64,000 nucleotides of DNA, from assembly GCA_036339375.1 (NCBI GenBank), contig JAYZBC010000051.1:11796-75795 (forward strand), written 5' to 3'. Numbering within the stretch: position 1 is the first letter of the stretch; every line of letters begins with the position of its first letter. Shown piece after piece: positions 25,917 through 54,434 of the stretch. The DNA is from Pseudomonadota bacterium. Its GTDB lineage: Bacteria > Pseudomonadota > Alphaproteobacteria > MPNO01 > UBA2964. A program made the position numbers and the translations under genes. The notes under the pieces are model-generated. The model was not told where the DNA came from, did not search any database, and was given only the letters and a program-made list of their open reading frames with translations.

Positions 25917-26219
25917 TAAAGACCTCCCAAATTATTAAAGGGACCCGAATATGGGTTTTATACCTTATACACCGTCGTTTAAACTAGAGCCTTTTAGCCT
26001 AAAAATTTTTCTACATCTTGAATCTGAACGCCAAACGAAGTCCTACGAATAAGGTGTATGGCATCAACTTTTTTAGTGTTAAATCCAAGTGACCTTGAGG
26101 TCTGGGTTGATTTTTCTGGCCCCAGACATTTCCCGAAAAGAAAAAATGGATAAAGATACAAGTAGTTATTTTGTAAGTTTTTTCACATTTTACCTTCGTT
26201 CAAGTCTTCAGGTGTTTTG

Positions 26220-27740
26220 TTAAATCTTAGGTTTACGAGAGGTCGAAACCAAACTTTGACGCAGTTTAATAACCAGAGGCCACAGAAAAAGTAAAATTGC
26301 GATAATCATAATTGTCCCAGCGATTGGACGAGCGAAAAAGATCTCCACAGAACCATGTGACATGATGAATGACTGTCGCATTGCGGGTTCTGCTAGCGGA
26401 CCAAGGACAATTGCAAGAACAGCAGGTGCGAGTGGATAGTCTAGCTTGCGCATAAGGTATCCTACCAGACCGAAGATTAACATAAGCCAAACATCATGCA
26501 TGTCCTTAGTGGGAGCAAAACCACCAACGACACATAAAACATAAATAATTGGTGCTAAAATGGTGAAGGGCATTTTTAACACCGCTACGAAGGCAGGGAT
26601 AAAGGCAATATTTATTAACAACGCAAAAAGGTTTGCGGCATATAAACTGGCTATCAAAGGCCAGACAAAATCCTTATGGTCTACAAATAATAGGGGGCCA
26701 GGCTCAAGCCCCCAAATCACCATTCCACCCAGGAGAATTGCCGTTGTTGGCGATCCAGGAATGCCCAAAGTCAACATAGGAAGCATTGAACCAGTACTAG
26801 CCGCATTATTAGCCGATTCGGGTGCCACGATGCCTTCTATATTTCCCTTGCCAAACGTTTCAGGGTTTTTCGAAATTGTTTTGGCAACACCGTAGGCCAT
26901 CAACGCACCGGGTGTTGCTCCAGCGGCGGGCAATATTCCAACAAAATAACCAAGGAGAGACCCCATCACCATCGTCTTTGCCGTCCGCATCAGACTCTTC
27001 AGCGCTTCCAGAGTTCGCGCTATGGAAACAGTGGCCTTACTAATTACCATCTCACCCTTACTTTGTTCGATTGTCCACAGCATTTCCCCAATACCGTAAA
27101 TACCGATGGCAAGAACCAAGAAATTAATCCCGTGGTAAAACCCTGTCAGATCCATAAAAATTAACCGGGGTTGGCCACTTACAATGTCAAGACCAACGGC
27201 ACTTAGGACTAGCCCAATCAATATGGAGAAGATCGTTTTAGGAATATCATCCCCCCCCAAGCCAATGAACGTCGCAAAGGCAAGGATCATCAAGGCAAAC
27301 ACTTCGGGTGGACCGAATGCCAGTGCCACGTCCGCTAGGGGAGGAGCAAAAAGGGTGAATAGAATTACCGAAATAGTGCCTCCAATAAAAGATGCCGTTG
27401 CTGCTGCCACTAGTGCCTTGTCCGCTTGTCCTTTAAGCGCTAGTGGACGCCCATCAAAGGTTGTGGCTACAGCTGTAGATGCTCCCGGAATACCTAACAT
27501 AACTGAGCTAATTGCACCGCCATACATCGCACCATAATAAAGTGCAGCTAGAAAGATGATGGCACCCGTGGGAGGCACTAGGAAAGTCATGGGCAACAAA
27601 ATAGCCACCCCGTTTACAGAACCGAGGCCGGGCATAGCTCCGATGAAAAGTCCAACCAGGCACCCCAAAATTACCAGACCTAAATTAAGGGGTTGGAACG
27701 CTATTAAAAAACCTTCAACGAGAAGGTCAAATACTTCCAT
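26220..27740 (-). CDS. tctA: Tripartite tricarboxylate transporter large subunit
   Basis: GAMPGLG, YGGAISSVMLGIPG, GIVAPESANNA and LTLGIPGS. Confidence 0.93.
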   Translation of the reverse strand: MEVFDLLVEGFLIAFQPLNLGLVILGCLVGLFIGAMPGLGSVNGVAILLPMTFLVPPTGAIIFLAALYYGAMYGGAISSVMLGIPGASTAVATTFDGRPLALKGQADKALVAAATASFIGGTISVILFTLFAPPLADVALAFGPPEVFALMILAFATFIGLGGDDIPKTIFSILIGLVLSAVGLDIVSGQPRLIFMDLTGFYHGINFLVLAIGIYGIGEMLWTIEQSKGEMVISKATVSIARTLEALKSLMRTAKTMVMGSLLGYFVGILPAAGATPGALMAYGVAKTISKNPETFGKGNIEGIVAPESANNAASTGSMLPMLTLGIPGSPTTAILLGGMVIWGLEPGPLLFVDHKDFVWPLIASLYAANLFALLINIAFIPAFVAVLKMPFTILAPIIYVLCVVGGFAPTKDMHDVWLMLIFGLVGYLMRKLDYPLAPAVLAIVLGPLAEPAMRQSFIMSHGSVEIFFARPIAGTIMIIAILLFLWPLVIKLRQSLVSTSRKPKI

Positions 27741-27792
27741 TCTTGTCTTACTCTCTTCTAATTTTTAAAATGGCCAGCTTGTTTAGACATAA

Positions 27793-28308
27793 TCAAAGAA
27801 AAATATCGTAAAGCGGGTAATAAACCCAATCATTTAAAAACCATTTTCCTGCCATCCCCTTCGGCAACTCAATTTTTAGTGCAATCTCAAAAAAGAAAAA
27901 CGTAAAAATTGGCGTAACTACAGCAATACTATTTGTTAGACCCCATGAATGGTTTCCAACAAATCGGATGTAGAAAATCAGGTATAACAATACAGACAAA
28001 TAAACCCCTACCACGTGGATAAGCCCTATCATTACCGTCAAAGACCCAGCACCTATGAGAAATAGGTGTAATCCTCTTTTGTCCATATATGGTAATTTAG
28101 AACGTGATGGGGGACTTTTTCGGCGGTACCATCTTACACCAATCCAAAGACAACAGGCCAACATGCATGCTGATAGCCAAAAAGGGAAGGCTCCACCGCC
28201 TGGTCCTGTTTTTGGATGCCATCCGATTGGAAGTTCGGCACTCTTAATCATTAGATAGAGGGAGAAAACCGCTAAAACAAAAGCCATGGCAAGTTCGGCC
28301 AAACGCAT
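27793..28308 (-). CDS. tctB: Tripartite tricarboxylate transporter small subunit
   Basis: GPGGGAFPFWL, about four TM segments, FFEIALKIELPKG; lies between tctC and tctA. ATG 28308 behind GAGG. Confidence 0.87.
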   Translation of the reverse strand: MRLAELAMAFVLAVFSLYLMIKSAELPIGWHPKTGPGGGAFPFWLSACMLACCLWIGVRWYRRKSPPSRSKLPYMDKRGLHLFLIGAGSLTVMIGLIHVVGVYLSVLLYLIFYIRFVGNHSWGLTNSIAVVTPIFTFFFFEIALKIELPKGMAGKWFLNDWVYYPLYDIFL

Positions 28309-28344
28309 GGCGATCCTCTCCCCCAAAGTTTAGGTTCTACTGCT

Positions 28345-29349
28345 CTATTTTATTTCGCCTGCCGCTTTCAAAAGTTTGCGATGGGCCTCGCGTTCTGCAA
28401 TAAAATATGCATTAAGTTTTTTGCCTGTTAACCAACCAGGTATTAACCCTTTTTTCTTGAGGTAGCCCTGCCAAGCCTTAGACTTATACACCTTTGTGAA
28501 TACATCCACATAAAACGCTTGGGCACTCTTACTCATTCCAGGGGGCGCAACAATACTACGTTGCATGTAGTAAACCATTTTATCCCCATAACCGAGTTCC
28601 TGGAAAGTTGGTATATTACCAAATCTTCCTTTTAATTTACCTTTCGGTGTAAAACTTGCCAAAGGACGCGATTTTCCGGCCTCCCAAAATCCTGCTTGTT
28701 CGGACGGGTTATTAACAGTCGAATTGATATGTTTCCCGATCAAATTTTTCGCGACCGTGCCTCCACCTTTAAACGGCACATAGGTCATTTTGATACCAAA
28801 TTTTTTCTCTAGCATACCGGTTACGAGGGAATCTTCTTGACCCTTACCGGTTCCACCCATTTTCCATGCTGCCGAGCCTGCTTTTTTCACCGCAGCAACA
28901 TAGTCTGGCACAGATTTGATATTTGTATCCGAATGTACCCAAAGTTGAAAAGTATCTTCAGCCAACCTGGCAATTGGAGTGAAACTTGAGATATCCACGC
29001 CAAGACTTGGGTTACGTAGTGGGGTCGTATAATAGCTGTTCAAGGTTGCCAAAATAATATAGTCATTACCGTTGTTGTCCTTAAGATATCTCAAGGCTTC
29101 AGCACCTGAACCGCCACCTTTATTATTCGGAACAAAAGGCTTAGGCGAAATTTTCTTCTTTTCAATTATACCTTGAATAAAACGGGCTAATCGGTCCGCG
29201 CCACCGCCTTTACCAGCCATGATAACAAATTCAACGGGCTTACGTGGCTTCCATGCAGCTTCTGCATCAGATAATGTGATGCTGCCCTGGATACCAAAAA
29301 TAAAACTCGTCAAAAGTGCAAAAACACCTGTTTTTAAAAATAGTTTCAT
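28345..29349 (-). CDS. tctC: Tripartite tricarboxylate transporter substrate-binding protein (Bug/TctC)
   Basis: Signal peptide, GKGGGAD, NNKGGGSG and YVPFKGGG. Confidence 0.92.
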   Translation of the reverse strand: MKLFLKTGVFALLTSFIFGIQGSITLSDAEAAWKPRKPVEFVIMAGKGGGADRLARFIQGIIEKKKISPKPFVPNNKGGGSGAEALRYLKDNNGNDYIILATLNSYYTTPLRNPSLGVDISSFTPIARLAEDTFQLWVHSDTNIKSVPDYVAAVKKAGSAAWKMGGTGKGQEDSLVTGMLEKKFGIKMTYVPFKGGGTVAKNLIGKHINSTVNNPSEQAGFWEAGKSRPLASFTPKGKLKGRFGNIPTFQELGYGDKMVYYMQRSIVAPPGMSKSAQAFYVDVFTKVYKSKAWQGYLKKKGLIPGWLTGKKLNAYFIAEREAHRKLLKAAGEIK

Positions 29350-29597
29350 TCTTTTCTCCCTTTCCCGGTAACGTCCCGGGTTTTAATGATCCTTTATTTA
29401 ACTAAGTCTAAAGAAACGACTAACACTCGATCACTTATTCCAAGACATTCTAAAATTTAGCCTCGATTACATGGAAAAGTTAAACGGAAGCAAAGGTGCT
29501 GTACAGCCTCTAATAAACGTATTTTTTGACCATTCCGTAAGTTTTTCGTTAGTTTGTGTTTTTTAGCAACCCTATTTGAACAATTGGAGGTTCGGTG

Positions 29598-30335
29598 ATG
29601 AAGCAAAATCAGATATACGGATATAGAGCTCGAATAGGTTACACCGTGGCCGCCGTAACCACGGAGATTTATCCTATCGATTGGTATCGGGTTGTCCCAA
29701 AAGGTGTTTCCTTAATGATGATTACTCTACCTCTCGGTAATCGTTCAAATTCGGATCTAAAAAAGTGTTACGAAATTTCCATTAAGGGGGCACAAACTAT
29801 GGCACAGGCTGGAGCCGATTTAGTCCTCCTTGGGGGACTCCCAATCAACATTTCCAAAGGTAATCATTCGCTCGAACAACTCATGGACCACCTGGAGACC
29901 AAAACCGGTGTGCAAATGTCATGCTCAGCATTGGCTCAATCTAACGCTTTCACCAAACTGGGTGCGAGTAAAGTCTGCACCATTCATCCCTTTCTAAAAG
30001 ATCAAAATAAGAGGCACGAACGCACTATTTGTGATTATTTTGGTCTGGAGTCTACAGGAGTTTTTGCGGGAGGCTCCAATTTAATCCAGCTAGGTACCCT
30101 GCCTCCCGAAAAAGCTCTCCAATGGGGACGTGAAGCGATATCTAAACACCCCGAAGCTGATACTCTTTATTTTGGGTGCCCTCATTGGACTGTAGTTGAT
30201 GCTATAGAACCCTTAGAAAAAGAGTTTGGTGTTAATGTTATGACGTCTTTACAAGCGATTGCTTGGGAATCTATGAGAAAGACAGGGATTAATGATCCAG
30301 TAAATGGGTTTGGACGATTACTTCGAGATTTTTGA
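29598..30335 (+). CDS. Arylmalonate decarboxylase / maleate isomerase (Asp/Glu racemase fold) family protein
   Basis: RARIG, ADLVLLGGLP, YFGCPHW and VMTSLQAIAW. ATG 29598 sits 7 nt after GGAGG. Confidence 0.85.
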   Translation: MKQNQIYGYRARIGYTVAAVTTEIYPIDWYRVVPKGVSLMMITLPLGNRSNSDLKKCYEISIKGAQTMAQAGADLVLLGGLPINISKGNHSLEQLMDHLETKTGVQMSCSALAQSNAFTKLGASKVCTIHPFLKDQNKRHERTICDYFGLESTGVFAGGSNLIQLGTLPPEKALQWGREAISKHPEADTLYFGCPHWTVVDAIEPLEKEFGVNVMTSLQAIAWESMRKTGINDPVNGFGRLLRDF

Positions 30336-30400
30336 AATTCCTTCAAAAGCAAATTATCGGTTTTTGAAGTTTGAAATCATCCTTTAATGGCCCAAAGTTT

Positions 30401-31135
30401 TTAGTTAAAATTTGATCCCCCATTGACTTGAATTACTTCGCCCGTAATAAAACTTGCCTTTTTTGAGATGAGGAAAATACCTGCATTTGCTATTTCCTCT
30501 GCGGTTCCAAAACGACCCATTGGAAATCTTTCAGCCATCGCTTTTCGTTTTTTCTCCGTATAACCAGCTATCATTGCTGTCTCTGTTAATCCAGGACTCA
30601 CTGCATTGCAGCGTATTTTTGGAGCCAACGACCGTGAAAGAGACCTAGTGAGAGCTATTATTGCGCCCTTGGAACTTACGTAAGCGGGTCCGCCCTGGCC
30701 CCCTCCGCCCGTTACGCCTTGAAGTACAGAGGTTGATGTTGTGAGTACAATACTGCCACCATTTTTATTCATCATATAATGTGCAGCAGCTTGAGAGATC
30801 AAAAATGAACCCGTAACATTTACTGACATCACAAAATTAAATTCACCCGCGTCAAGTTCATCCCATTTTTTAGAAGAATGCGTCGCCCCCCAGTGAATTA
30901 AAGCATTTAATTCACCAAATTTTTTATTTGTCTGGAAAACCGCTTCCTTACAATCTTCTGGCTTCGAAACATCACCCCCAAAAAAAATTATTTGTTCATC
31001 ATTTGGGAGTTCTGCACGCATTTGTTCTTCCTTGGGGTCAAAAGCAAGGATGCGATTACCTTTATCAAGTAATTTTTTTGTGCAAGCTAATCCAATCCCA
31101 CTAGCCGCCCCTGTTACCATAATTGTTTGCACCAT
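30401..31135 (-). CDS. SDR family oxidoreductase
   Basis: TGAASGIG, PAYVSSK, RCNAVSPG and NGG. Confidence 0.9.
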   Translation of the reverse strand: MVQTIMVTGAASGIGLACTKKLLDKGNRILAFDPKEEQMRAELPNDEQIIFFGGDVSKPEDCKEAVFQTNKKFGELNALIHWGATHSSKKWDELDAGEFNFVMSVNVTGSFLISQAAAHYMMNKNGGSIVLTTSTSVLQGVTGGGGQGGPAYVSSKGAIIALTRSLSRSLAPKIRCNAVSPGLTETAMIAGYTEKKRKAMAERFPMGRFGTAEEIANAGIFLISKKASFITGEVIQVNGGSNFN

Positions 31136-31169
31136 AACGTTTTCCTAAACTAACCCGGTAAAAGCCTCT

Positions 31170-32753
31170 CTAGTTGCCAACTGGCAAAAAAATTTTATTA
31201 TTGTTACCTAGGTCCCATTCCCCGTTTTTCAGCCGAACCAATTCCCCTTTACTTCGTATTTGATCCAAAGCAAGTAAAACATCCCGCCCGTCAACACTCC
31301 CTGTCCCAGAAACCAAAGCTTCAAAAGTTTTTGGCCCATCCTTTAAAGCTTCCCTAACACTACGAAAACGCCGATTTGTCGGTAAAGGCCTGGGAGGCTT
31401 CGGAACAGAAAGCTCTAGCGCTTCACGTTTGCCAAAAGGTAAAGTCAGGTCATAGCCCGCTTTGGAACCGACGTTACGACCATCCAAAGACGGATCATGA
31501 GGTAATGTCCGAAAACCAGACAATACAATCAAATCTCGGTCTGGTTGAAATCGTGTCGCCATGGCCCAATCTATCTGTTCATCAGAAAATATATTTATAT
31601 CGTCATCAACAACATAAACATTCTTAACGTTGGCAAGAGAACCGTGTATTGCGGAAATTGCGTTCCTCGCCTCGCCTGCAACACGCTGCCGCAAGCTAAC
31701 CCGGACGTTCATCACGCCAGCCCCCGATGCCGTTGAATAAACGCCTAAAGGCTCACGCACGGCTGTTTTAAGAGCATCCCAGACTAATGCTTCAGTCCTG
31801 GCCCCAGCAATTTGAGCTGTATCGGTATTTCCAATACGAAATCCACTAATGGTTGCCGTTTGAAAAAGTGCGTCTTTACGCATTGTAATTGCCGTTAAAT
31901 GAAAAACTGGGTTGGGTTTCATTAAACCGTAATATCCAAAGGTTTCCCCATAAGGACCTTCTGGATTGACGTAACCCCGTTCGTCAAAATACCCCTCCAA
32001 TACAATCTCAGCATCTGCGGGAACGGGCACTCCATTGGTAACTCCCTTAACGAATGCAACCGGTTCACCACGGAGTGTTCCAATTAACCCAAGCTCATCT
32101 ACTGCTACCCTCATGGCAGCAGCTAAAAAATCAGTTGGGTGTGATCCTACAGTGAAACTAACTGGTAATCTTTCTCCGTTGGCAACAGCCTTTTGGTATA
32201 AATGCCGTAAGTCACTGGGCGCTGTAAGATTTAAACCGGCAGTCTGTCTCCCCATTAACATCAAACGGCGACTTCCAACATTGACCCAGCCTGTTTCTGG
32301 ATCCATTGCAAAATCGATTCCTGCCGAAATATAGGGTCCCCCATCCATTTCATGCTGCAAATGAACTGGTAGTTTGGTAAAATCAGCAGAATCACCAGTA
32401 AGAATCATATCATGCACAGGAGCATTCTCTGAAGAAATTTCTATAGTGGATTTTGGATTGGTCATCCGCTGGATCATTTCATTGGCAAGTTGCGCAGGCT
32501 GAACACCGAATGCGGCAGCTAGCCTGGTCCTACTGCCCATCACGTTTCCAAATAATTCAGCCTGCTCGGGCCCTACCTTTTGAAATAAAACAGCCTTTGA
32601 ATGACCATCAAGAACTTTTGCCACATCAATTAAATCAATCGGCTCTTCAATAACTTCTACTTCCCCTGCCTCTAAGAGCTGTTCCGCAAAAACACGAAGA
32701 CGGAATTTGTCGAGATCTGGAACATCCGTCTGTGACTCTAAAGGTTGCTTCAA
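31170..32753 (-). CDS. UbiD-family prFMN-dependent (de)carboxylase with a C-terminal extension
   Basis: DGGPYIS, VGSRRLM, VPADAEIVLEG, EGPYGETFGYY, VVDDDINI and ATRFQ. TTG start. Confidence 0.9.
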   Translation of the reverse strand: MKQPLESQTDVPDLDKFRLRVFAEQLLEAGEVEVIEEPIDLIDVAKVLDGHSKAVLFQKVGPEQAELFGNVMGSRTRLAAAFGVQPAQLANEMIQRMTNPKSTIEISSENAPVHDMILTGDSADFTKLPVHLQHEMDGGPYISAGIDFAMDPETGWVNVGSRRLMLMGRQTAGLNLTAPSDLRHLYQKAVANGERLPVSFTVGSHPTDFLAAAMRVAVDELGLIGTLRGEPVAFVKGVTNGVPVPADAEIVLEGYFDERGYVNPEGPYGETFGYYGLMKPNPVFHLTAITMRKDALFQTATISGFRIGNTDTAQIAGARTEALVWDALKTAVREPLGVYSTASGAGVMNVRVSLRQRVAGEARNAISAIHGSLANVKNVYVVDDDINIFSDEQIDWAMATRFQPDRDLIVLSGFRTLPHDPSLDGRNVGSKAGYDLTLPFGKREALELSVPKPPRPLPTNRRFRSVREALKDGPKTFEALVSGTGSVDGRDVLLALDQIRSKGELVRLKNGEWDLGNNNKIFLPVGN

Positions 32754-32924
32754 AACTCTCTCCCCTGCAAAAACCTTTCACACCTCATTGGGTCAAAACC
32801 ATACCGCCCAATTCTTGTCATAGACAAGGTATGACAGCGTTACATAAGCTTTGCAAAGATCCTAAGCAGTAAATAAAAAAATAGTCCGCTTGTCGGAAAT
32901 GACAGTGAATGCCATTGTCAAAAA

Positions 32925-34556
32925 ATGTTAGGAGAGAAAAGAATTGACACACCTGTACTCATCGTAGGTGCGGGACCTGTCGGGCTCGCGCTAGCCGGGG
33001 ACCTCGGATGGAGGGGTATCCCAAGCATTGTTATAGAAAAAACCAATGGCACCATCTTCCAAGCCCGGCAAGACTTGGTGGGTATTCGAACAATGGAGTT
33101 TTGCCGCCGATGGGGAATTGTGAAAGATGTAGAAAGGTCCCCTTATCCCCGAGATTACCCGCAGGACAATATTTACATTGCCGGAAATTTAGTAAATGGG
33201 TGGGAAATCGGGCGTTATAAAGCGCCTTCAATGGACCAAGAAAAACCACCCGAACAAAGTCCACAAAAACGCGAACGATGTCCGCAAAACATGTTTGATC
33301 CAATTCTGAAAAAATTCGCTTTAACGTCCAAAAATTCCAAAATACTTTATAATCATCAATTTTGTTTCCTTGAACATCTGTCTAACGGCATAAGGATAAA
33401 TGTCGAGGACACCAACCAAAAACGGAAAATCAAGATTTTTTCTCGTTACCTTGTTGGTTGTGACGGGTTTGGTAGTCAGGTGCGTGAAACGCTAAACATA
33501 AAAATGTTAGGCAAGCCGGCACTCACTTATACAACCAATATCATATTCCGTTTCAACGGTTTTGAAAAATTACATACAAAACCTCCCGGGTACCGTTTCA
33601 TCTTTTTAAAACCTGGTGGTGTATGGGCAACAATTGTTGCAATCAATGGGCGAGATCAATGGCGCATGTCCATCGTCAACAGCAGCGAACAACCTGGGGA
33701 CCTTTCCAGGGAAGAAATTCACAAAGCGATTGCAGAAGTTGTTGGCGTCCCTTTTGGATATGAAATTTTATCCATTTTGCCGTGGACAAGACGTGAACTG
33801 GTGGCTGATAAATATAATGTTGGTAATGTATTTATTGCCGGAGATGCTGCCCATGTTATGTCGCCAACAGGCGGTTTCGGAATGAACACTGGTATCGGAG
33901 ATATTGTAGACCTGTCTTGGAAAATTTCTGCTACTTTAAAGGCTTGGGGTGGTTCTTCATTAATGGATAGCTATGTCGTGGAACGACAACCGGTTGCCTT
34001 TCGGAATGTCAAAGAAGCTAGCGGAAATTTAAATCGAATGCTTTCAAAAAAAGACCACCCTGCTTTTTTTGACAAAACTGTTGAAGGAGCAAAAGCACGC
34101 AAATCCATTGGCCAAAAAATTTACAAACAAATGCAGCGCGAATGGGAAACTTTAGGGATACACCTTGGTTACCGTTATGAAAATTCGCCAATCTGTGTTT
34201 CGGATGGCACACCTGATATTCCAGATAATCATGCCCAATATATACAAACTTCAAGACCTGGATCGAGAGCGCCACACGTTTGGCTCAAAGACGGACGTTC
34301 TACTTTAGACCTCTTTGGGTCCTCATTCGTTCTTTTATGTTTGGGTGAAAATGTTCCAAAACCTGACCCTTTTTATAAAGCAGCCAAATCGTGCAATTTG
34401 CCATTAAAAATATTGCATTTAAAAGAAAAAAAAGTCTGCCTGGCTTATCAAAGCCGTTTGGTATTGGTGAGACCTGATGGACATGTTGCTTGGCGGGGAG
34501 ATAATCTACCCAAAAATTCAAAAAAGGTCATTGATACCGTAAGAGGTGCATTGTAG
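32925..34556 (+). CDS. Group A FAD-dependent monooxygenase (phenol/aromatic hydroxylase, PheA/TfdB-like)
   Basis: GAGPVG, LVGCDG, AGDAAHVMSPTGGFGMNTGIGD, RPGSRAPH and LVRPDGHVAWR. Confidence 0.92.
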   Translation: MLGEKRIDTPVLIVGAGPVGLALAGDLGWRGIPSIVIEKTNGTIFQARQDLVGIRTMEFCRRWGIVKDVERSPYPRDYPQDNIYIAGNLVNGWEIGRYKAPSMDQEKPPEQSPQKRERCPQNMFDPILKKFALTSKNSKILYNHQFCFLEHLSNGIRINVEDTNQKRKIKIFSRYLVGCDGFGSQVRETLNIKMLGKPALTYTTNIIFRFNGFEKLHTKPPGYRFIFLKPGGVWATIVAINGRDQWRMSIVNSSEQPGDLSREEIHKAIAEVVGVPFGYEILSILPWTRRELVADKYNVGNVFIAGDAAHVMSPTGGFGMNTGIGDIVDLSWKISATLKAWGGSSLMDSYVVERQPVAFRNVKEASGNLNRMLSKKDHPAFFDKTVEGAKARKSIGQKIYKQMQREWETLGIHLGYRYENSPICVSDGTPDIPDNHAQYIQTSRPGSRAPHVWLKDGRSTLDLFGSSFVLLCLGENVPKPDPFYKAAKSCNLPLKILHLKEKKVCLAYQSRLVLVRPDGHVAWRGDNLPKNSKKVIDTVRGAL

Positions 34557-34571
34557 ATGGGAGAGGATAAA

Positions 34572-35534
34572 ATGAAGGGATCACAAAACTGGGGAAATAC
34601 TAATGACCTTGAAACCCTTTATGAACAATTAGCACGATGCAATATAAGCGCTGGTTGGGCAAAACCGACACCCTCTCTCTATCCAGAGCCCTACCAAACA
34701 TTCCTACCCCACAAATGGTCATGGAAAGATAGCCGCGCTGCACTTGAAGTAGCTGGACGCCTAATTAGTACGGACCTTGCGGAAAGACGTAATTTAATTT
34801 TATACAATCCCACCGAAGGTAACTCTTACTCCACAGTTCGTACCTTAATAACTGCATATCAAATGATATTGCCAGGAGAACAAGCAAGATCACACCGTCA
34901 TACACCCAACGCCTTAAGATTTATACTAGAAGGTGAAGGCTCTTATACTATCGTAGATGGTCAACGCCTCGACATGCACCCTAACGACGTTTTGCTCACG
35001 CCAAACTGGTCCTGGCACGGCCATGCTAGCGAAGCAAGTGAAGCTTGCTATTGGATTGATTGTCTGGATGTACCCTTGGTACATTTTTTGGAACCGATGT
35101 TTTTTGAACAACACCCCGCCGTTTATGAGCCTGTCGAAACCGTTCCTACTAATTCTCCTTTTCTCTTTAGTTGGGAGAATGTCCAAAAAGCTCTCGAGAA
35201 TGTGGAGCAAGATCAAAAAGGGTCATACGGAAAGCGTGTAGAACTTGGGAGCCCTGCCCTGAAATCAATTGGCCTTCACATGCACCGACTTGAAGGTGGA
35301 ACTAAGACAAATGAAATAAAAACAACCGCTAATCAAATTTTTTGTGTTGTTGAGGGTTATGGAACAACATTTATCGATGGTCATAAATTTAGTTGGGGTC
35401 GTGGTGATGTTGTCGCAATTCCTGGTTGGCACCCTTACTCGCATCACATAAAACAAGACGCGACACTGTTTGAAATGAGTGACGAACCTATAATGCAAGC
35501 CTTTGGTTGGTTAAGGCATTCTGTAGGCTCTTGA
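34572..35534 (+). CDS. Gentisate/salicylate 1,2-dioxygenase-like bicupin
   Basis: AERRNL, YQMILPGE and HRH...WHGH triad. ATG 34572 behind GAGGA (34557 is also possible). Confidence 0.88.
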   Translation: MKGSQNWGNTNDLETLYEQLARCNISAGWAKPTPSLYPEPYQTFLPHKWSWKDSRAALEVAGRLISTDLAERRNLILYNPTEGNSYSTVRTLITAYQMILPGEQARSHRHTPNALRFILEGEGSYTIVDGQRLDMHPNDVLLTPNWSWHGHASEASEACYWIDCLDVPLVHFLEPMFFEQHPAVYEPVETVPTNSPFLFSWENVQKALENVEQDQKGSYGKRVELGSPALKSIGLHMHRLEGGTKTNEIKTTANQIFCVVEGYGTTFIDGHKFSWGRGDVVAIPGWHPYSHHIKQDATLFEMSDEPIMQAFGWLRHSVGS

Positions 35535-35566
35535 TGTTGACAATGTTAGATAAGGACTGTTTTTAA

Positions 35567-36541
35567 ATGACTTTAACATTTGCTTCCTGGGGGTACGACC
35601 GCATGGAAGCCCTCCGCTCCGGTACAGTAAAGGTAGAAGGTTTTGATGTACAATGCTTGGATTTAAAACCACGTGAAATATTCGATCGAATGGGCAGTAA
35701 ACAAGACTTTTCCGCTGCAGAATTTTCTTTCACAGAATATGTCTTAAATTTTATCCAAGGGAATAAGCTTTTTGTAGCAATCCCAGTATTTCCAAGTAAA
35801 GTCTTTCGCCATGGGTTCATTTTTAAAAACGCAGAAGCAGGAATTGTGACCCCAAAGGATCTTGAAGGAAAGCGCGTTGGGGTACCACTTTACACCATGA
35901 CTGCCGCACTTTGGATTCGCGGATTACTTCAGGACGAATATGGTGTGGATTGGCGAAGTTTCCATTGGATGGAAGGATCTCCCGACAGCAAGGGTGCCCA
36001 TGGAAATCCCTCAATACCTAAACTTCTGAAACCGGTTGAAATTGAAAAAGCGCCCATAGACCAATCCCTTGGAGAACTTCTGGTAACCCAGAAAATTGAT
36101 GCAATGCTAGGGTCACAGGCACCTGATACTATTAACCATCCTTCTGTTGAAAGATTATTTTCGGACTTTCGGACCGTGGAACGAAATTACTTTATTAGAA
36201 CACGTTTGCAGCCAATAATGCACCTCGTGGTCATTCGTCGGGATATTCATGAAGCACACCCAGGTTTGGCCCAAGCGCTTTACAATGCTTTAGTGGAGGC
36301 CAAAGAGGTGGCGCTGGCAAAAATGCGCTACACGGGGGCAAATTGTATAATGATGCCCTTTCTGGCAGCCGAAATGGAGGATATTAGAACCATTTTTGGT
36401 GGCGATCCCTGTTCTTATGGGCTTGAAGAAAACCGACACATCTTGGAGACCATGATCCGTTATATGGTAGAACAAGACTACATTCCGGATCATGTCCCGA
36501 TCGAGGAACTTTTTTTACCGATGAAAGCTCCCGAAAAATGA
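35567..36541 (+). CDS. 4,5-Dihydroxyphthalate decarboxylase-like protein (periplasmic-binding-protein fold)
   Basis: YDRMEAL, IPVFPSKVFRHG, LEGKRVGVPLYTMTA, PIMHLVVIR and YGLEENR. Confidence 0.82.
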   Translation: MTLTFASWGYDRMEALRSGTVKVEGFDVQCLDLKPREIFDRMGSKQDFSAAEFSFTEYVLNFIQGNKLFVAIPVFPSKVFRHGFIFKNAEAGIVTPKDLEGKRVGVPLYTMTAALWIRGLLQDEYGVDWRSFHWMEGSPDSKGAHGNPSIPKLLKPVEIEKAPIDQSLGELLVTQKIDAMLGSQAPDTINHPSVERLFSDFRTVERNYFIRTRLQPIMHLVVIRRDIHEAHPGLAQALYNALVEAKEVALAKMRYTGANCIMMPFLAAEMEDIRTIFGGDPCSYGLEENRHILETMIRYMVEQDYIPDHVPIEELFLPMKAPEK

Positions 36542-36662
36542 TTAACCGAAGTTTTTAGTCCGTTAGGAAGCAATTTTACCCAAATTGCAAAAAAGTAGAT
36601 AACAGACATTTGTGGAAATAAGTAGAAAATAACAACAGGGTAACTTTGAGGGGAAAAAACCC

Positions 36663-38357
36663 ATGAGAAACATATTGGATGGCGGCGAAGCCATTGTTGA
36701 AGCTTTCCGAAAGTTAAACGTCAAATATATTTTGTCCTCCCCCGGAACTGAATGGGCACCGGTTTGGGAGGCAATGGCAAACCAAAAACAATCGGGTAAT
36801 GGCGGACCAGTTTTAATGGACGTTTGGCATGAAACTTTAGCCGTTGATATTGCCTCAGGTTTTACGCTTGTCACCGGAGAAATGCAGGCTGTATTGCTGC
36901 ATGCAGGTTCGGGCCTAATGCAAGGAAATATGGGAATACACGGTGCTTTTGTCGCCGGAATTCCGATGATCGTTATCTCGGGAGAATCTATGACTTATGG
37001 TGAACAAAAGGGTTTCGATCCCGGAGCCCAATGGATCAATAATCTTAGTATCGTCGGCGGAACAACCCGTCTGGTAGAACCAATTGTTAAATTTGCGACA
37101 GTCGCTGGAAGTTCTCATACAGTGTATGAACATGTCCTTCGAGCAGGTGAGCTGGCCCAACGGACACCCAGGGGTCCTACCTATCTCGCCGTTTCAACCG
37201 AAACTTTAATGGATGAATGGACAGCGCCTGAAAACGCAAGAACTATTCCCCCGGCCCCAAAAATTCAAACTATTCCCTCAGATATCGAAAAAATGGCTGA
37301 TCAACTTTTGGCCGCAAAGAATCCTCTGGTCCTTACAGAAGCGGCGGGTCAAGAAGTGGAAACATACGAAGCGCTTGTTGGGCTATGCGAGCTGCTTGCA
37401 CTCCCGTTAATAGAGAAACCGGGGGCTTTATTTGCTAATTTTCCAAAAGACCATCCCCTCCATCAAGGCCACGATGTACAACCATACTGGGACGACATGG
37501 ACCTCGCGCTAGTTATACGGACAAGGGTACCCTGGTATCCACCGAGCCAACGACCACCAAATGCAACGGTCGCTATCATTGACGAGGAGCCCCACCGCGC
37601 ATCAATGGTTTATCAAAGTCTTCAGGCCGATCTGTACCTCGAGGGTTATGCAGCAAGGACACTTCAAGACCTCACGAAAGTCCTTAAGAGCCGAAAATTA
37701 GACAAAGAGGCAATTGAAAACAGAAGATCCGCTCTTGCTAAATCTCATGATGAATTAATGGCAAAAAAAATGGCGCTCTACAAAAACGTACAGAATAAAT
37801 CACCCATTGACCCAGTTTGGCTTTGCGCCTGCCTCGGTGAAGTCATGCCTAAAGGTACTTCTTATATAGACGAAGTCACAACGCATACCCCCTTATTACG
37901 AGAACACATAATGTGGACTGAGCCTCAAAGCCTTTTCACCCGACAAAGTGGATTAGGCCAAGGCCTTGGCCTCTCACTTGGCGTAAAACTCGCCAAGCCT
38001 AAATCGCCAGTCGTCACTTTAATCGGAGACGGAGCGTTTCTGTATAACCCGGTATTACAAAGTTTAGGCGCTTCAAGGGATTACAATTTGCCTATTATTG
38101 CGGTCATTTTCGATAATACCAAATATGCTGCTATGCAGGGTATGCATCAAAAAATGTATCCCAAGGGTGTCGCCGTCGACACTAACGTATTCCACGGCAC
38201 CCATATTAATGCTCCTGATTTTACCAAAGTCGCTGAGGCGTTTGGCGCTTACGGAGAAAGAGTTGAAAATCCTGCACAAGTTAAACAGGCACTAAAAAAT
38301 GCTCTTGAAGCAAATGAAGAAGGTAGGACTGCAATTATTGACGTTTGTGTTTCCTGA
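36663..38357 (+). CDS. Thiamine-diphosphate-dependent enzyme (benzoylformate decarboxylase / ALS superfamily)
   Basis: SPGTE, HE (catalytic Glu) and GDGAFLYN...N ThDP motif. Confidence 0.9.
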   Translation: MRNILDGGEAIVEAFRKLNVKYILSSPGTEWAPVWEAMANQKQSGNGGPVLMDVWHETLAVDIASGFTLVTGEMQAVLLHAGSGLMQGNMGIHGAFVAGIPMIVISGESMTYGEQKGFDPGAQWINNLSIVGGTTRLVEPIVKFATVAGSSHTVYEHVLRAGELAQRTPRGPTYLAVSTETLMDEWTAPENARTIPPAPKIQTIPSDIEKMADQLLAAKNPLVLTEAAGQEVETYEALVGLCELLALPLIEKPGALFANFPKDHPLHQGHDVQPYWDDMDLALVIRTRVPWYPPSQRPPNATVAIIDEEPHRASMVYQSLQADLYLEGYAARTLQDLTKVLKSRKLDKEAIENRRSALAKSHDELMAKKMALYKNVQNKSPIDPVWLCACLGEVMPKGTSYIDEVTTHTPLLREHIMWTEPQSLFTRQSGLGQGLGLSLGVKLAKPKSPVVTLIGDGAFLYNPVLQSLGASRDYNLPIIAVIFDNTKYAAMQGMHQKMYPKGVAVDTNVFHGTHINAPDFTKVAEAFGAYGERVENPAQVKQALKNALEANEEGRTAIIDVCVS

Positions 38358-38413
38358 AAAATTAAGGGCTGCAAAATTAATCAGGTATTAAACATTTTTA
38401 CTGAAAGTTGCAC

Positions 38414-39619
38414 CTAACCCCCGCCCATAACGATGGAGAGACCCCAGCTACAAAATGTTGTCAACAACACCACCAACCATGGTGCAACCTTCCAAAAAAC
38501 CAAAAGAGTGAAAGCAAAAAGAGCTAGGGCGAAGTCAGATGAGGATAGAATACCACTCGTCCAAACTGGGTTATAAAAGGCTGCAAGCAAAAGACCTACG
38601 ACTGAGGCATTGACTCCCAACAAAGCTTTCTGAACAAATTTTCGTTGCCTTAATTCATCCCAATAAGGCAGTAAACCTATCACTAAAAAGAAAGAAGGAA
38701 GAAAAATTGATATTAAACAAATCATACCCCCCAGCCATCCATTAGGCTGAGGGTCCATGACTGTTCCGAGATAAGCAGCAAAGGTAAATAAAGGGCCTGG
38801 TACAGCCTGTGCTGCACCGTAACCCGCTAGAAAACTGTTGTTAGTCACCCACCCTGTTGGGACCATTTCAGACTGAAGCAAGGGTAAAACGACATGTCCA
38901 CCACCAAAGACTAAGGAACCTGAGCGGTAAAAACTATCGATAAGAATTAATGTTTGTGAAGGAAACGCAGTCACAGCAATTGGAAGTACAATCAGTAGAC
39001 TTATAAAAAGAAAAAGTGAGCTGTTGGCAAAAATTTTACTAATCTGAATACCAACTGAAGTCCGACGATGTTCAATAGAACCAGATCTAAGGGCAAACCC
39101 AGAAAAAGCTCCCAAAATTATGACCCCTATCTGAGTGAAGGGACTTGGAAAATACAACACAATGATAGCAGCAACTGCTGCCAGCGTGACCCGCTGAATG
39201 TCGGGGCACATAGTTTTAGCCATACCCCAAACGGCTTGCGCGACGACAGCGACGGCCACTATTTTAAGCCCATGCAATGCTCCTCCTGAAAGAACTTCTG
39301 GAAATACTAAGACCCCATACCCAAAAGCAATAAGAAGGAGCGCCGACGGTATCGTAAATCCAAACCAAGCAGCCAAAGCACCAAAAATACCACCCTTGGC
39401 TAACCCAATGCTAATACCAACTTGGCTCGAAGCCGGTCCAGGCAAAAACTGGCAAAAAGCCACTAAGTCCCCATAGGTATGTTCATCAATCCAGCGGCGG
39501 CGGATAACAAATTCTTCACGAAAATATCCAATATGGGCAACCGGGCCTCCAAAAGAGGTGCAACCCAATTTAAAAAAGGTCAGAAAGACCGAAAATACTG
39601 TTTCCCGTTCAGAGGACAT
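38414..39619 (-). CDS. chrA: Chromate/oxyanion efflux transporter (long-chain CHR)
   Basis: SFGGPVAHIG, CQFLPGPASSQ, VFGGGHVVLP and AQAVPGP. Confidence 0.92.
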   Translation of the reverse strand: MSSERETVFSVFLTFFKLGCTSFGGPVAHIGYFREEFVIRRRWIDEHTYGDLVAFCQFLPGPASSQVGISIGLAKGGIFGALAAWFGFTIPSALLLIAFGYGVLVFPEVLSGGALHGLKIVAVAVVAQAVWGMAKTMCPDIQRVTLAAVAAIIVLYFPSPFTQIGVIILGAFSGFALRSGSIEHRRTSVGIQISKIFANSSLFLFISLLIVLPIAVTAFPSQTLILIDSFYRSGSLVFGGGHVVLPLLQSEMVPTGWVTNNSFLAGYGAAQAVPGPLFTFAAYLGTVMDPQPNGWLGGMICLISIFLPSFFLVIGLLPYWDELRQRKFVQKALLGVNASVVGLLLAAFYNPVWTSGILSSSDFALALFAFTLLVFWKVAPWLVVLLTTFCSWGLSIVMGGG

Positions 39620-40878: not shown

Positions 40879-42000
40879 ATGGCAAGCAACAAAGGATTAA
40901 AAGAGGTTGGCTTTTTTGACTGTGCCGGCGGGGGACAAATTACGGTCAAAGGCCGCTTTGCCTATATCGGCCATATGGCAAATCCTTATGGTACCAGTAT
41001 TGTTGATGTTTCTGACCCTCTTCATCCGAAACTATTGGCTCATATTGAAATGCCTGAGGGCACTCATTCTCATAAGGTGCGCGCTACCGAAGAAATTATG
41101 GTCCGCAATCACGAGTTGCTGGGCTCGGGTAAACCGGAAGATTTTCATACTGGAGTAGGTATTTTTGATGTCTCAGACAAACAAAATCCTAAGAAGATAT
41201 CGACATGGGACACAGTTGGGCGTGGTGTTCACCGTTTTGATTTTGATGGCCGTTTTGTTTACTTTTCCTCAACAATGGAGGGTTTTCGCGGTCCAATAAT
41301 GGTCGTTATTGATATCATCGACCCAGAATTTCCCAAGGAGGTGTGTAAATGGTGGATACCGGGACAATGGGAAGCAGGGGGCGAAGAATATGTTTGGGGA
41401 GATGGTCCCGAACCGCGTTGTCACCATCCTTTACGACTAGAAAACCGGCTTTATGTGAGTTACTGGCACCACGGTTGTTTTATCCTAAACATTGACGATC
41501 TAAATAAACCTAAAAAGATTTCTGGCCTGAATTCTAGTCCAACCTTCCCCCACCCCACACATACAGCGTTACCAATTCCATTTGAAATTCGTGGACACAA
41601 AATAATGATTGTCGCAGACGAAGATGTTGCAAAGCTTCGCCCCCATGCGCCTTCTTTTGCATGGGTAGTAGACATTACTGATGAAACCAACCCCATTCCT
41701 ATTTCTTCAATCCAGGTAGACGGTCTTGATCCCGATGGCGCACCTCAAGAGCCTTTCACAGGATGCCACCAACCAAGTGAAGTTGTCATTGATGAAATTA
41801 TCCCTTTTGCTTGGTTTTCCAAAGGCGTGAGATTGTTCAATATTTCGAATCCTCACTCACCAAAAGAAGTTGGTCATTTTGAACCCGACCCCCAACCTGG
41901 GTGTGAACGTTTAAGTGCAAACGATGTCACAATGGATGACAGAGGTTTAGTTTATGTGATCGACCGATTGCGCGGATTGCATATTTTGGAAAGGGTTTAA
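40879..42000 (+). CDS. LVIVD-repeat beta-propeller protein, His-rich, cytoplasmic
   Basis: Repeats SIVDVSDP, IFDVSDK, VVIDIIDP, ILNIDD, WVVDITD and LFNISNP. No signal peptide. Confidence 0.82.
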   Translation: MASNKGLKEVGFFDCAGGGQITVKGRFAYIGHMANPYGTSIVDVSDPLHPKLLAHIEMPEGTHSHKVRATEEIMVRNHELLGSGKPEDFHTGVGIFDVSDKQNPKKISTWDTVGRGVHRFDFDGRFVYFSSTMEGFRGPIMVVIDIIDPEFPKEVCKWWIPGQWEAGGEEYVWGDGPEPRCHHPLRLENRLYVSYWHHGCFILNIDDLNKPKKISGLNSSPTFPHPTHTALPIPFEIRGHKIMIVADEDVAKLRPHAPSFAWVVDITDETNPIPISSIQVDGLDPDGAPQEPFTGCHQPSEVVIDEIIPFAWFSKGVRLFNISNPHSPKEVGHFEPDPQPGCERLSANDVTMDDRGLVYVIDRLRGLHILERV

Positions 42001-42038
42001 ACGCACAGATTTTATTTACGTTTCAAAGCGAGGACATT

Positions 42039-43193
42039 ATGGAAATATCAAAGTCTCAAAGGACAAAATCCAACAAAAAAACGGCTCGCCTGGACAAACT
42101 TTATACAACTCTCAATTCATTAAAAATGGCGCCCTACTGGGCGGTGAAAGATTCACCAAATGACCACAACGAGGATGACCAGGTTTTAAAAGGCCGCAAA
42201 GCTTTGCCGTTTATTTGGAAATATTCAGAGATAGAACCATTGCTTTTTGAAGCCGCGGAATTAATTTCAATGGACGATTCAGAGCGTCGTTCGATCGTCC
42301 TAGTAAATCCTGGGATGGCGCCAATCCGCGCTACTGTATCTACCCTTTACACGGCTTATCGTTTGAATGACCCAAATGAAATTATGCCGCCGCATCGGCA
42401 TTCGATCAATGCAGTTCGAATAGGCCTCACCGGAAAACAAAATTTTACTGGTGTTGAAGGCGAACCTATCACATTTGGTCCAGGTGACCTTGTCTTAACA
42501 CCAGCCGATGCTTGGCACAATCATGGTAATAAAGGCGACGATTTCGCTGTAAATGTCAGTGTATTAGATCTCCCCCTTTCTGAAGTTTTAAATGCTGCAA
42601 AATTTGAACATGACTATAAAGAGAAAAATGGAGGACAATTAATCTCAAAACGTGAGCAGTCTATTCGCTTTTCAGACAATTATTCACAGAGGACCTACGG
42701 GTATGGGGGATTAAAACCCCGTTTTTTAAATCATGATCGAGGAACGGGCTTGCATTCGCCAATGTATGTCTATCGATGGGAGAAAACACGCGAAATGCTT
42801 GAGGACCTCCGAAATCATGAGGGTAGCCCTTGGGATGCCATTCAAGTTGAATACACAAACCCAATTACTGGCCTCACCGCTTATCCTACTATGACATTTT
42901 TTGGCCAACTGCTAAGACCAGGAGAAAGCACGCTCCCTCAACAGCAAAATGCGAGTCAAATTTGTTTCCCTTTTGATGGTAAAGGGTACAGTATGGTTGG
43001 GCAAACACGCTTGGAATGGGAACCTTTTGATGCAGTCGCAATCCCGGGTGGCGTTTGGTATCAACATTTTAACTCTTCCGAAAATCAAGATGCCATTTTA
43101 TTTGTCGCAAGTGATGAGCCAACACTAAAAGCTCTCGGATTTTTCAAAAGACAGGGGAAAAATGCGAATGGTGAAACACTGTTTCTAGAGTAA
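42039..43193 (+). CDS. Gentisate / 1-hydroxy-2-naphthoate 1,2-dioxygenase-like bicupin
   Basis: SERRSIVLVNP, PPHRHS, WHNH, YTNPITG and SDEP. Confidence 0.85.
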   Translation: MEISKSQRTKSNKKTARLDKLYTTLNSLKMAPYWAVKDSPNDHNEDDQVLKGRKALPFIWKYSEIEPLLFEAAELISMDDSERRSIVLVNPGMAPIRATVSTLYTAYRLNDPNEIMPPHRHSINAVRIGLTGKQNFTGVEGEPITFGPGDLVLTPADAWHNHGNKGDDFAVNVSVLDLPLSEVLNAAKFEHDYKEKNGGQLISKREQSIRFSDNYSQRTYGYGGLKPRFLNHDRGTGLHSPMYVYRWEKTREMLEDLRNHEGSPWDAIQVEYTNPITGLTAYPTMTFFGQLLRPGESTLPQQQNASQICFPFDGKGYSMVGQTRLEWEPFDAVAIPGGVWYQHFNSSENQDAILFVASDEPTLKALGFFKRQGKNANGETLFLE

Positions 43194-52366: not shown

Positions 52367-53335
52367 TCAGTCACCTTCAATTCTGTAATATCGAGCAAAT
52401 TTCATGATTGGTTCATCGGTCATTCGAAAAACTACTGAATCTTCACTACTGCAATGTTCTATCCATTTCCAAACTGGAGCAGCGATAGTGTCACCCCGCT
52501 CCCATTCAAATTTTTCTCCTTCAATCGTAGTAATTCCTGCCCCTTGCATGATAACGAAAACATTATTGGTTGCTGAACGGTAACGACGGGTAGTTAAGCC
52601 GGAATCCCAACGGTGCACATAAAGACCCATCGTCGGCATACTTGGCGCATCCAACAAGATACTAGGCCCATAAAATTCTTCAATATCCGATTCGGCTTCC
52701 TCGAGTTCTTTTAAAGTGTCATCCCAGCTAAAACGATATGGAGACGTCTCCGTTACCACTTCCACTTCTTCAAAACCTTCTGGATGATCCTCGAAAAACA
52801 TCGGCTCTAATAAATGGTTCAAGGGAACATCAAGCCCATCAAACCAGTAAGCCGGCTCCTCACCATCGTGGCCATGTCCATGCCAACACCATCCTGGTGT
52901 AAGCAAAATATCCCCGGTTTCCATAGGGGTTTTTTCGCCATCTACTGTCGAATATGAGCCTTTACCATCAATTATTACACGTAAAGCGTGTGGGGCGTGT
53001 CGATGTGACCTTGCTTTTTCACCTGGTAAAATCATTTGATAGGCACTAACCAGCGTGCGTGTCGTAGCAATATCATTGGGCTCCACGGGATTTCTCATAA
53101 TCAGATTTCTTCTTTCAGCCAGCTCAGTGTTAATAAGTCTTCCCGCAATATCGAGGGCCTCCTTGCTTTGGCGGTAACGCCAATGCATGGGTCTAAAGTC
53201 AGTTGTGGGTTGAGAACGGAGAATTGGCGTATCGCGATCAATCCACCCAGCGGTCATGTCAACTTTACCAAGTTCATAGTATAGATCATCAAGCGTACCA
53301 ATATTAGGTTTAATCCCTTCCATTTTACTATTCAT
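52367..53335 (-). CDS. Gentisate/salicylate 1,2-dioxygenase-like bicupin (paralog of 34572)
   Basis: AERRNL, YQMILPGEKARSHRH, WHGH and TDEP. Confidence 0.88.
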   Translation of the reverse strand: MNSKMEGIKPNIGTLDDLYYELGKVDMTAGWIDRDTPILRSQPTTDFRPMHWRYRQSKEALDIAGRLINTELAERRNLIMRNPVEPNDIATTRTLVSAYQMILPGEKARSHRHAPHALRVIIDGKGSYSTVDGEKTPMETGDILLTPGWCWHGHGHDGEEPAYWFDGLDVPLNHLLEPMFFEDHPEGFEEVEVVTETSPYRFSWDDTLKELEEAESDIEEFYGPSILLDAPSMPTMGLYVHRWDSGLTTRRYRSATNNVFVIMQGAGITTIEGEKFEWERGDTIAAPVWKWIEHCSSEDSVVFRMTDEPIMKFARYYRIEGD

Positions 53336-53366
53336 GATTTCCTCCCAAAAAATCTAGAAGTGCACC

Positions 53367-54434
53367 TTACAAAAAGTTTGGAATAACCCGTTCACCAAAC
53401 AATTTCATCGAATTTTCTGCCTCAACCTTAGTAATTGTATGAAAATTCACCTGTAAAGAAAAAAATTCAAACCCCCCTACGATATCCATGTAATTCTGAA
53501 TTTGTTTATTAATGTCATCAGGTGTACCAGCCAAAATTGTGCCACTCTCCAGCAAACTCTCAAAGGAGCTTTCACGAAGCTTTTGCATGTGCTTATCGTA
53601 GTTGGGATAGTTTTCTGAAGCTTCGGTACCTTTTCCCCATCCTGAATCCGTTTCAAAGGCGCGTATTAAAGAAGCAAAATATTCGTTCACATTCGGTTCT
53701 GCAATTCGAAAAGCTTGACCTTGATCTTCGTGGCAAAACATATGAAATCCCATTGCAACGACACCTCTTCCCACATGCCCTCCTTCAGCCCAGGCTTCCC
53801 TATAGGCATCGAGAATTACCTTCATTTGTGGGCCAGCAAAGGCGACGAGCATAAGATTGTACCCATTAAGGCCTGCCCAACGCACAGAGTCGTGTGTACC
53901 AAGCGCTGCTATCCAAATTGGTGGCCTAGGTTTTTGAGTTGGACGGGGCAAAGATGTAACATTTTTAAATTGGTGGAATTTTCCTTCGAAAGAAACATTT
54001 TCTTCCTCAAGCAATCGGCACACAGCACCAAGTCCTTCCACAAATCGGGCACGGCTTTCATCCATCGACCGTCCAAGGCGATGAAACTCATGGGGTAAGA
54101 AGGCACGCCCGAATCCACAGTCTAAGCGACCATTAGATATCGCATCGAGCATCCCTATTTCGCCTGCAACTTTTAAGGGGTGATTAAATATTGGTAATAC
54201 AGCCCCCGTGAGGAATCGCGCTTTTTGGCTACGTTGCGATGCCGCTGAAAGAAAAATATGGGGAGCCGGACTATATCCTCCATAAGGTTCAAAATAATGT
54301 TCTACCGTTCTCACTTGAGTAAATCCGGTGGTATCACAAATGCTGACGAGATCTAAACATTCGTTCCAATACTGTTGACTGCTCTTCTCTTCAGGACCTA
54401 CGTCTGGGAAAAATTGTAGTCCAAATTCCATCAT
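53367..54434 (-). CDS. Luciferase-like (LLM) flavin-dependent monooxygenase
   Basis: EHYF..YGG, HPLKVAGE, LDAISNGRL, PTQKPRPPIWIA and GTPDD. Confidence 0.88.
   Translation of the reverse strand: MMEFGLQFFPDVGPEEKSSQQYWNECLDLVSICDTTGFTQVRTVEHYFEPYGGYSPAPHIFLSAASQRSQKARFLTGAVLPIFNHPLKVAGEIGMLDAISNGRLDCGFGRAFLPHEFHRLGRSMDESRARFVEGLGAVCRLLEEENVSFEGKFHQFKNVTSLPRPTQKPRPPIWIAALGTHDSVRWAGLNGYNLMLVAFAGPQMKVILDAYREAWAEGGHVGRGVVAMGFHMFCHEDQGQAFRIAEPNVNEYFASLIRAFETDSGWGKGTEASENYPNYDKHMQKLRESSFESLLESGTILAGTPDDINKQIQNYMDIVGGFEFFSLQVNFHTITKVEAENSMKLFGERVIPNFL

Follow-up and report, generated by a model that had tools for sequence, protein, structure and literature searches.

The gentisate pathway consists of a 3-hydroxybenzoate 6-hydroxylase or salicylate 5-hydroxylase, gentisate 1,2-dioxygenase (GDO) and a maleylpyruvate isomerase or hydrolase. 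This pathway and its 5-aminosalicylate variant (MabAB) were resembled by a locus in a 64,000-nt stretch of DNA (the window) from a marine alphaproteobacterium (assembly GCA_036339375.1, contig JAYZBC010000051.1, positions 11,796–75,795): both had a hydroxylase and an Fe(II) bicupin with the His triad and the salicylate-binding set of residues, and FAH occurred in cultured carriers of these genes. The six genes studied span 30401–38357 of the window and had been proposed, in an initial annotation, to form one new ring-degradation pathway. As described below, two or three of them (monooxygenase and bicupin, with a PhtD-like gene as the third) are a real, widespread module, and the other three are recent neighbours. 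The features are as follows.

30401–31135, minus strand: classical short-chain dehydrogenase/reductase (SDR), 244 aa, PF13561
31170–32753, minus strand: UbiD decarboxylase, HmfF/AnInD branch, with C-terminal extension; above the TIGR00148 cut-off
32925–34556, plus strand: FAD monooxygenase (core gene 1), class A, PRK06126, 543 aa; NF004780 628 bits
34557–35534, plus strand: bicupin (core gene 2), gentisate/salicylate 1,2-dioxygenase type; TIGR02272 229 bits
35567–36541, plus strand: PhtD-like gene (lineage-level third gene); 9JP7 E 3e-53, TM-score 0.89
36663–38357, plus strand: thiamine diphosphate (ThDP) enzyme, PRK08327-like, 564 aa, 389 bits
30405–32824, no strand: indel block of SDR and UbiD, missing in a sister population (blastn of L089 and L109)
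32825–32924, plus strand: DNA upstream of the monooxygenase gene; still present in the sister population, which lacks UbiD here, and includes an inverted repeat, TGACA-N11-TGTCA

The locus differed from the gentisate pathway in its hydroxylase, a 543-aa protein of the PRK06126 type with a C-terminal domain versus the ~400-aa PRK08163 type, and in having neither a maleylpyruvate isomerase nor an FAH gene, a decarboxylase-family gene standing in their place. Two other described modules, hcdABC of Pseudomonas mandelii 7HK4 and the cadA-VOC-FAH hydroquinone-type module of Burkholderia SFA1, were also short operons of a flavin hydroxylase, a ring-cleaving dioxygenase and a hydrolase. In the published description, which was the basis of comparison for hcdABC, HcdB is an extradiol dioxygenase (PMC6222606), and hcdABC stayed unmatched. 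CadA was 35% identical to our monooxygenase and had a different pocket; cadA was accompanied by genes of the FAH and VOC families, the latter annotated as a glyoxalase. No characterised cluster matching the locus was found in the open literature (subscription papers lay outside the search) or in a plasmid collection, in agreement with the initial annotation, which knew of no described pathway with these genes. Judged by its predicted enzymes, the route probably works like the gentisate pathway, although in tests of orthology they did not qualify as GDO, PhtD or HmfF. Flavin hydroxylation, cupin ring fission and non-oxidative decarboxylation are familiar chemistry, and this is no new kind of system.

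Monooxygenase orthologs of at least 48% identity were found at 58 distinct loci, this species and its sister population being excluded. A cupin gene was present at 45 of these, a PhtD-like gene at 14, an Mlr6791-like gene at 10, a UbiD of this subfamily at nine, FAH at eight, the SDR gene at one and the ThDP gene at none. Limited to the 35 loci whose flanks each reached 5 kb, the counts were 30 (cupin), 8 (PhtD-like), 7 (UbiD), 6 (Mlr6791-like), 7 (FAH), 1 (SDR) and 0 (ThDP). All six genes together were found at no locus outside this species, and the sister population lacked SDR and UbiD at this site; the set was therefore not a conserved pathway unit, contrary to the initial annotation. The monooxygenase-cupin pair ranged over marine alphaproteobacteria, soil Xanthobacteraceae and Stellaceae, a metagenome-assembled genome (MAG) of Binatia, and cultured Burkholderiales. 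It was detected in 21 of 77 genomes of the uncultured marine order and, at the same threshold, in 0 of 400 evenly sampled alphaproteobacteria (three candidates scored per genome). Cultured carriers were Burkholderia RPE67, YI23 and SFA1, Variovorax VAI-C, Chelativorans DSM 9103 and Hydrogenophaga BE240. An apparently isofunctional, unassigned enzyme pair is thus marked out and, since it occurs in cultured strains, its substrate should be findable at the bench. The substrate would name a compound that the carriers draw from dissolved organic matter.

All six open reading frames were present and intact with the coordinates first predicted, and the enzyme names given to them (hydroxylase, cupin, UbiD, PhtD-like, ThDP enzyme and SDR) were borne out by Pfam, NCBIfam and PDB matches and by fold search. 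The intergenic gaps were, in gene order, 34, 171 (divergent), 0, 32 and 121 bp. Thus the "tight four-gene run" held for its first three genes only, the ThDP gene being separated by 121 bp of AT-rich DNA; the UbiD-SDR pair said to face this run lay exactly 171 bp away but was divergent, back to back with it. A single 10.2-kb contig of public run X5 covered 29051–39000, and contigs of X1 and X4 bridged the UbiD-monooxygenase junction, indicating that the gene order was real and not an assembly artefact. A promoter and terminator scan gave hits at chance level.

The monooxygenase scored 628 bits against PRK06126 (NF004780; cut-off 445) and contained the motifs GxGxxG at 15, DG at 180 and GD at 306 and a C-terminal Rng_hyd_C domain (PF21274). 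It shared the three-domain class A architecture of RebC and StaC (2R0C, 4EIP), flavoproteins of indolocarbazole biosynthesis, its best match among solved structures being RebC (2R0C, E 1e-99). Unlike theirs, its setting is catabolic, with indolocarbazole genes absent. Two putative pocket arginines, Arg224 and Arg247, were invariant among the orthologs and aligned with RebC Phe216 and Arg239, the residue pair that switches RebC to StaC activity (PMC11350588). Among 50 orthologs (48–69% identity), 24 putative pocket positions, placed by sequence alignment and not from a liganded structure, were near-invariant, and the paralogs differed at them.

The cupin start is probably the ATG at 34572, preceded by a GGAGAGG ribosome site, giving a protein of ~320 aa that matches the orthologs. 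The protein scored 229 bits against the GDO model TIGR02272 (cut-off 442) and 198 bits against the MabB model (cut-off 650), below both. The metal triad of the N-terminal cupin (His113, His115 and His154) was present. In salicylate 1,2-dioxygenase (SDO), Arg83, Gln108, Arg127 and His162 hold the carboxylate and Asp174 holds the 5-OH (PMC10306065); all five were kept, as Arg77, Gln102, Arg121, His156 and Asp168. Other positions were changed: Ile98 (Ile or Val across the clade) replaced the Tyr or Trp of position 104, Trp104 in SDO and the one ligand of the carboxylate or 5-OH that was lost, and Gly and Asn replaced Leu38 and Ala85. Lys36 was specific to the clade and missing from the paralogs of the host genome. 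As in the monooxygenase, the putative pocket was near-invariant across orthologs. We infer one common type of substrate, an acid that resembles salicylate, is activated at C5 and is bulkier or more charged than gentisate. An enlarged pocket with an extra Lys points to a bulky or extra-carboxylated ring, and the best reading of the predicted substrate is a bulky or extra-carboxylated (hetero)aromatic acid of salicylate type. The earlier suggestion of catabolism of a hydroxylated or polycarboxylated (hetero)aromatic thereby gained support, in the form of a hydroxylate-then-cleave route for a hydroxylated, probably extra-carboxylated acid.

A second cupin gene was seen within 52367–54449 of the window. 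Its product was 47% identical to the core cupin, with Arg in place of Lys36. It adjoined an LLM gene whose 72% ortholog lay directly upstream of the monooxygenase gene at locus L097; the cupin and LLM genes are possibly a split-off piece of an ancestral cluster.

The PhtD-like protein had no Pfam match. It resembled the 4,5-dihydroxyphthalate decarboxylase PhtD/OphC of the phthalate 4,5-pathway (9JP7, E 3e-53) in its fold (TM-score 0.89), in lacking a signal peptide and in the core residues Glu52, Arg81, His82, Tyr109, His219 and Tyr-Asp-Arg. It differed in sequence (33% identity) and in its PLYT motif (PEYQ in PhtD), and no Rieske phthalate dioxygenase or dihydrodiol dehydrogenase was present near the locus. 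In a quick tree the PhtD-like partners formed one clade, marked by PLYT, Glu57 and His145 and separate from the enzyme of the Massilia WG5 phthalate cluster, which has PEYQ. These partners adjoined three separate monooxygenase clades, and their clade also contained members not linked to the monooxygenase-cupin pair (L098–L105).

The third slot beside the pair was variable. It was occupied by a PhtD-like gene in this family, in a soil clade and in one Burkholderiales MAG; by UbiD in genus g12 (directly behind the cupin gene) and at L052, L072 and L078; and by an Mlr6791-like gene (2Z7B, E 2e-52) at ten of the 58 loci. The eight loci with FAH beside the pair never also had a PhtD-like gene. PhtD, UbiD and Mlr6791 all strip CO2 from aromatic or conjugated acids, and the simplest reading is therefore a single decarboxylation step catalysed by varied folds. 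Homologs of PrpF, PrpB and PrpD were added at the loci of cultured carriers; as these handle tricarboxylates, they fit with an extra carboxyl or carboxyalkyl group. For the UbiD, crotonase and molybdenum hydroxylase genes at L052, L072 and in genus g12, a furan (hmf) interpretation was rejected, as these UbiDs are no orthologs of the one at this locus (48%). On plasmid p1 of Burkholderia RPE67 (L117), and at L116 and L118, the core lay amid genes for a P450, a ferredoxin, a CoA ligase, an alpha-methylacyl-CoA racemase and PrpF/PrpB; this P450/racemase setting hints at a methyl-branched aromatic whose side chain is trimmed ahead of ring fission.

The host genome (3.0 Mb, 97% complete) was detected in seawater metagenomes from ten studies. 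It encoded 35 UbiD, 17 PhtD-like, 13 FAH-family, eight GDO-like and about nine ThDP proteins, and only two genes of the flavoprotein family PF02441, one of them presumably ubiX. At first look, relatives had 37–48 UbiD candidates per genome. Such a build-up of UbiD, PhtD-like and FAH genes in 3.0 Mb is an extreme expansion. In a genome so rich in paralogs, the adjacency of a decarboxylase gene is weak evidence alone; by the same count of FAH-family genes, a maleylpyruvate-type hydrolase is not missing. Among 10-kb windows of the genome, UbiD occurred in 9%, PhtD-like genes in 5% and ThDP genes in 2%, and all three within one such window only at this site. The juxtaposition of decarboxylase and ThDP genes is therefore rare, yet it is not conserved.

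We consider it fairly likely that the monooxygenase and the cupin make up the functional unit, joined in this lineage by the PhtD-like gene as a third member, and that the unit acts by hydroxylation, C1–C2 cleavage, one decarboxylation and an unlinked FAH. The monooxygenase, using FAD and NAD(P)H, would grip a hydroxy-aromatic carboxylate by its two pocket arginines and put an OH para to the existing one, yielding a substituted gentisate-type diol. In the second and best supported step, the Fe(II) bicupin would chelate the salicylate moiety and cut C1–C2 with O2 to give a substituted maleylpyruvate. The PhtD-fold protein would then take off one surplus carboxylate, before or after cleavage; elsewhere this slot would be filled by UbiD, by an FAH-family enzyme or by the Mlr6791-like decarboxylase with its class II aldolase fold. 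Hydrolysis of the acylpyruvate would most likely fall to one of the 13 FAH-family enzymes encoded elsewhere in the genome.

Several observations weigh against this interpretation. Only 25 of the 58 loci had any of the three decarboxylase families nearby. The UbiDs adjacent to the core fell into at least four subclades with 47–55% mutual identity and, the genomes being paralog-rich, could be chance neighbours. The mutual exclusion of PhtD-like and FAH genes was not significant (expected overlap about 2). Close kin among the 58 loci (five of genus g12) make the counts overstate independence, and the putative pocket positions come from sequence alignment.

A broader reading, which we hold only tentatively, places the pair at the centre of a widespread, as yet undescribed route that handles a natural polycarboxylated (hetero)aromatic of seawater and soil, its decarboxylation filled independently by three unrelated folds, the PhtD fold, prenylated-flavin UbiD and the class II aldolase fold. 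If true, the large orphan group of PhtD-like proteins that has expanded in uncultured marine alphaproteobacteria would thereby gain its first function. Apart from this reading, knowledge of the pair's substrate would begin the assignment of functions to PhtD-like proteins that are at present annotated as ABC binding proteins.

An N-heterocyclic substrate is a less probable alternative and, we think, an unlikely one. Here, in the manner of RebC, the monooxygenase would hydroxylate a carbon that bears a carboxyl group and release CO2, the cupin would open an aza-gentisate and the PhtD-like protein would act on the fission product, an order that agrees with that of the three genes. Large subunits of molybdenum hydroxylases recurred near the core, and the native substrate of the Mlr6791-like partner is a hydroxypyridine dicarboxylate. 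The closest solved structures were RebC and a StaC-like variant, with Arg239 conserved (PMC11350588), but RebC Phe216 and Arg230 were replaced by Arg224 and Val238 in the monooxygenase. Moreover, the loci of cultured Burkholderia indicated that a carbon side chain is beta-oxidised, with a P450 taking part, rather than amide hydrolysis, and a conserved deformylase or amidase was absent from the loci.

Use of a sulfonated or sulfated aromatic, the monooxygenase displacing sulfite by ipso-hydroxylation and the PhtD-fold protein perhaps being a mere cytoplasmic binding protein, appeared very unlikely. In G002, G007 and one JGI contig the PhtD-like gene was immediately followed by a sulfatase gene, and TauD, TauE and LLM genes occurred near several loci; these families were, however, abundant among the examined loci generally and lacking at most loci from soil and cultured strains. 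The PhtD-like protein gave a weak SsuA-family match and its Atlas cluster was named a binding protein, but the PhtD core residues were kept and its TM-score was 0.89 to 9JP7 versus 0.54 to TauA. At L031, L033 and on JGI contig 0Zz1hA06, the PhtD-like gene was followed by a choline-sulfatase-like gene of like orientation, and TauE and TauD genes lay upstream.

The UbiD protein had all three domains, with Arg162/163 and the EGPYGE motif (265–270) intact. The nearest solved structures were furan-2,5-dicarboxylate decarboxylase HmfF (6H6X, E 5e-58) and AnInD (7P9Q), which share the Arg and EGPYGE motif. The relationship was distant: UbiD carried ~75 aa beyond the Pfam domains at its C-terminus (31170–31400 of the window), kept in orthologs; it was one of 35 paralogs; and the region had no hmf genes. 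On two metagenome contigs of the sister population (86–92% DNA identity), the 30405–32824 block was missing and a racemase-family gene was joined straight to the monooxygenase gene, with the 100 bp ahead of the latter retained. The sister monooxygenase genes contained frameshifts, at different positions in L089 and L109, which were therefore read as assembly errors and not as pseudogenisation. The nearest other lineage (L119 and L125; monooxygenase 69%) had a UbiD of 80% identity that was likewise divergent from the core genes, an LLM gene where the SDR sits here and a TRAP transporter where the ThDP gene sits. Four more UbiD orthologs (67–76%) lay in unrelated contexts. The UbiD link is old in a small clade and dispensable, and a functional tie is possible; that UbiD feeds the module in this lineage may be true, although we incline against it. 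The SDR is a species-level neighbour and a bystander. The inverted repeat lay at 32900–32920; two copies were found genome-wide against 2.1 expected, and none was seen upstream of five distant monooxygenase orthologs.

Two further features lay on the far side of the SDR gene. A tripartite tricarboxylate transporter, TctABC (26297–29475), was likewise missing in the sister population, and a contig of run X3 jumped over 26159–29414, so TctABC may be polymorphic inside the species. The gene at 29595–30335, convergent with the SDR gene, belongs to the arylmalonate decarboxylase/maleate isomerase (racemase) family; a maleate-isomerase role after ring fission is conceivable, and the gene was not kept at distant loci.

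The ThDP enzyme had the catalytic Glu57 and the GDG...N motif (GDG at 455) and scored 389 bits against PRK08327, under the cut-off of 456. None of 23 ThDP orthologs in the order (62–77%) had a monooxygenase, cupin or PhtD-like gene within 1.5 kb; their neighbours included TauE, purine genes, an LVIVD protein and transporters. Of the 77 genomes, 21 had the monooxygenase ortholog, 22 the ThDP ortholog and six both, against 6.0 expected. In four of these six, whose positions were compared, the two genes lay on different contigs or 21 kb apart; they were on different contigs in G003 and G043 too. Genomes of genera g6 and g7 had, of the two orthologs, only that of the ThDP enzyme, and genomes of g12 and g23 only that of the monooxygenase. 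Kinship makes the loci non-independent, yet this cannot rescue a ThDP link that is absent. The ThDP enzyme is a bystander, stand-alone in relatives and outside the module. A single six-gene pathway with three decarboxylations, in which the ThDP enzyme handles the 2-oxo-acid fission product instead of an FAH-type hydrolase, was the least probable reading and largely refuted by the comparison. In its favour, the same-strand adjacency of the ThDP gene persisted in the sister population (L089 and L090), a ThDP enzyme could in chemical terms accept such an acid, one ThDP paralog lay 3.4 kb from another cupin gene (contig C23) and the G002 and G007 orthologs lay near different cupins; against it stand the ThDP counts of 0/58 loci and 0/23 neighbourhoods, the chance-level phyletic overlap, the SDR-UbiD block missing in the sister, the 121-bp gap, the 13 FAH-family genes and the cultured strains with FAH beside the core, so that neither three decarboxylases in one route nor a ThDP step replacing the maleylpyruvate route could be upheld.

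Genes for an LVIVD protein and a cupin were found at 40879–43193, 2.5 kb behind the ThDP gene. In G002 and G007 (L080 and L081), an LVIVD homolog (39%), a divergent cupin and an FAH gene lay directly ahead of the ThDP ortholog. The LVIVD-cupin pair may be the partner of the ThDP enzyme, if any exists.

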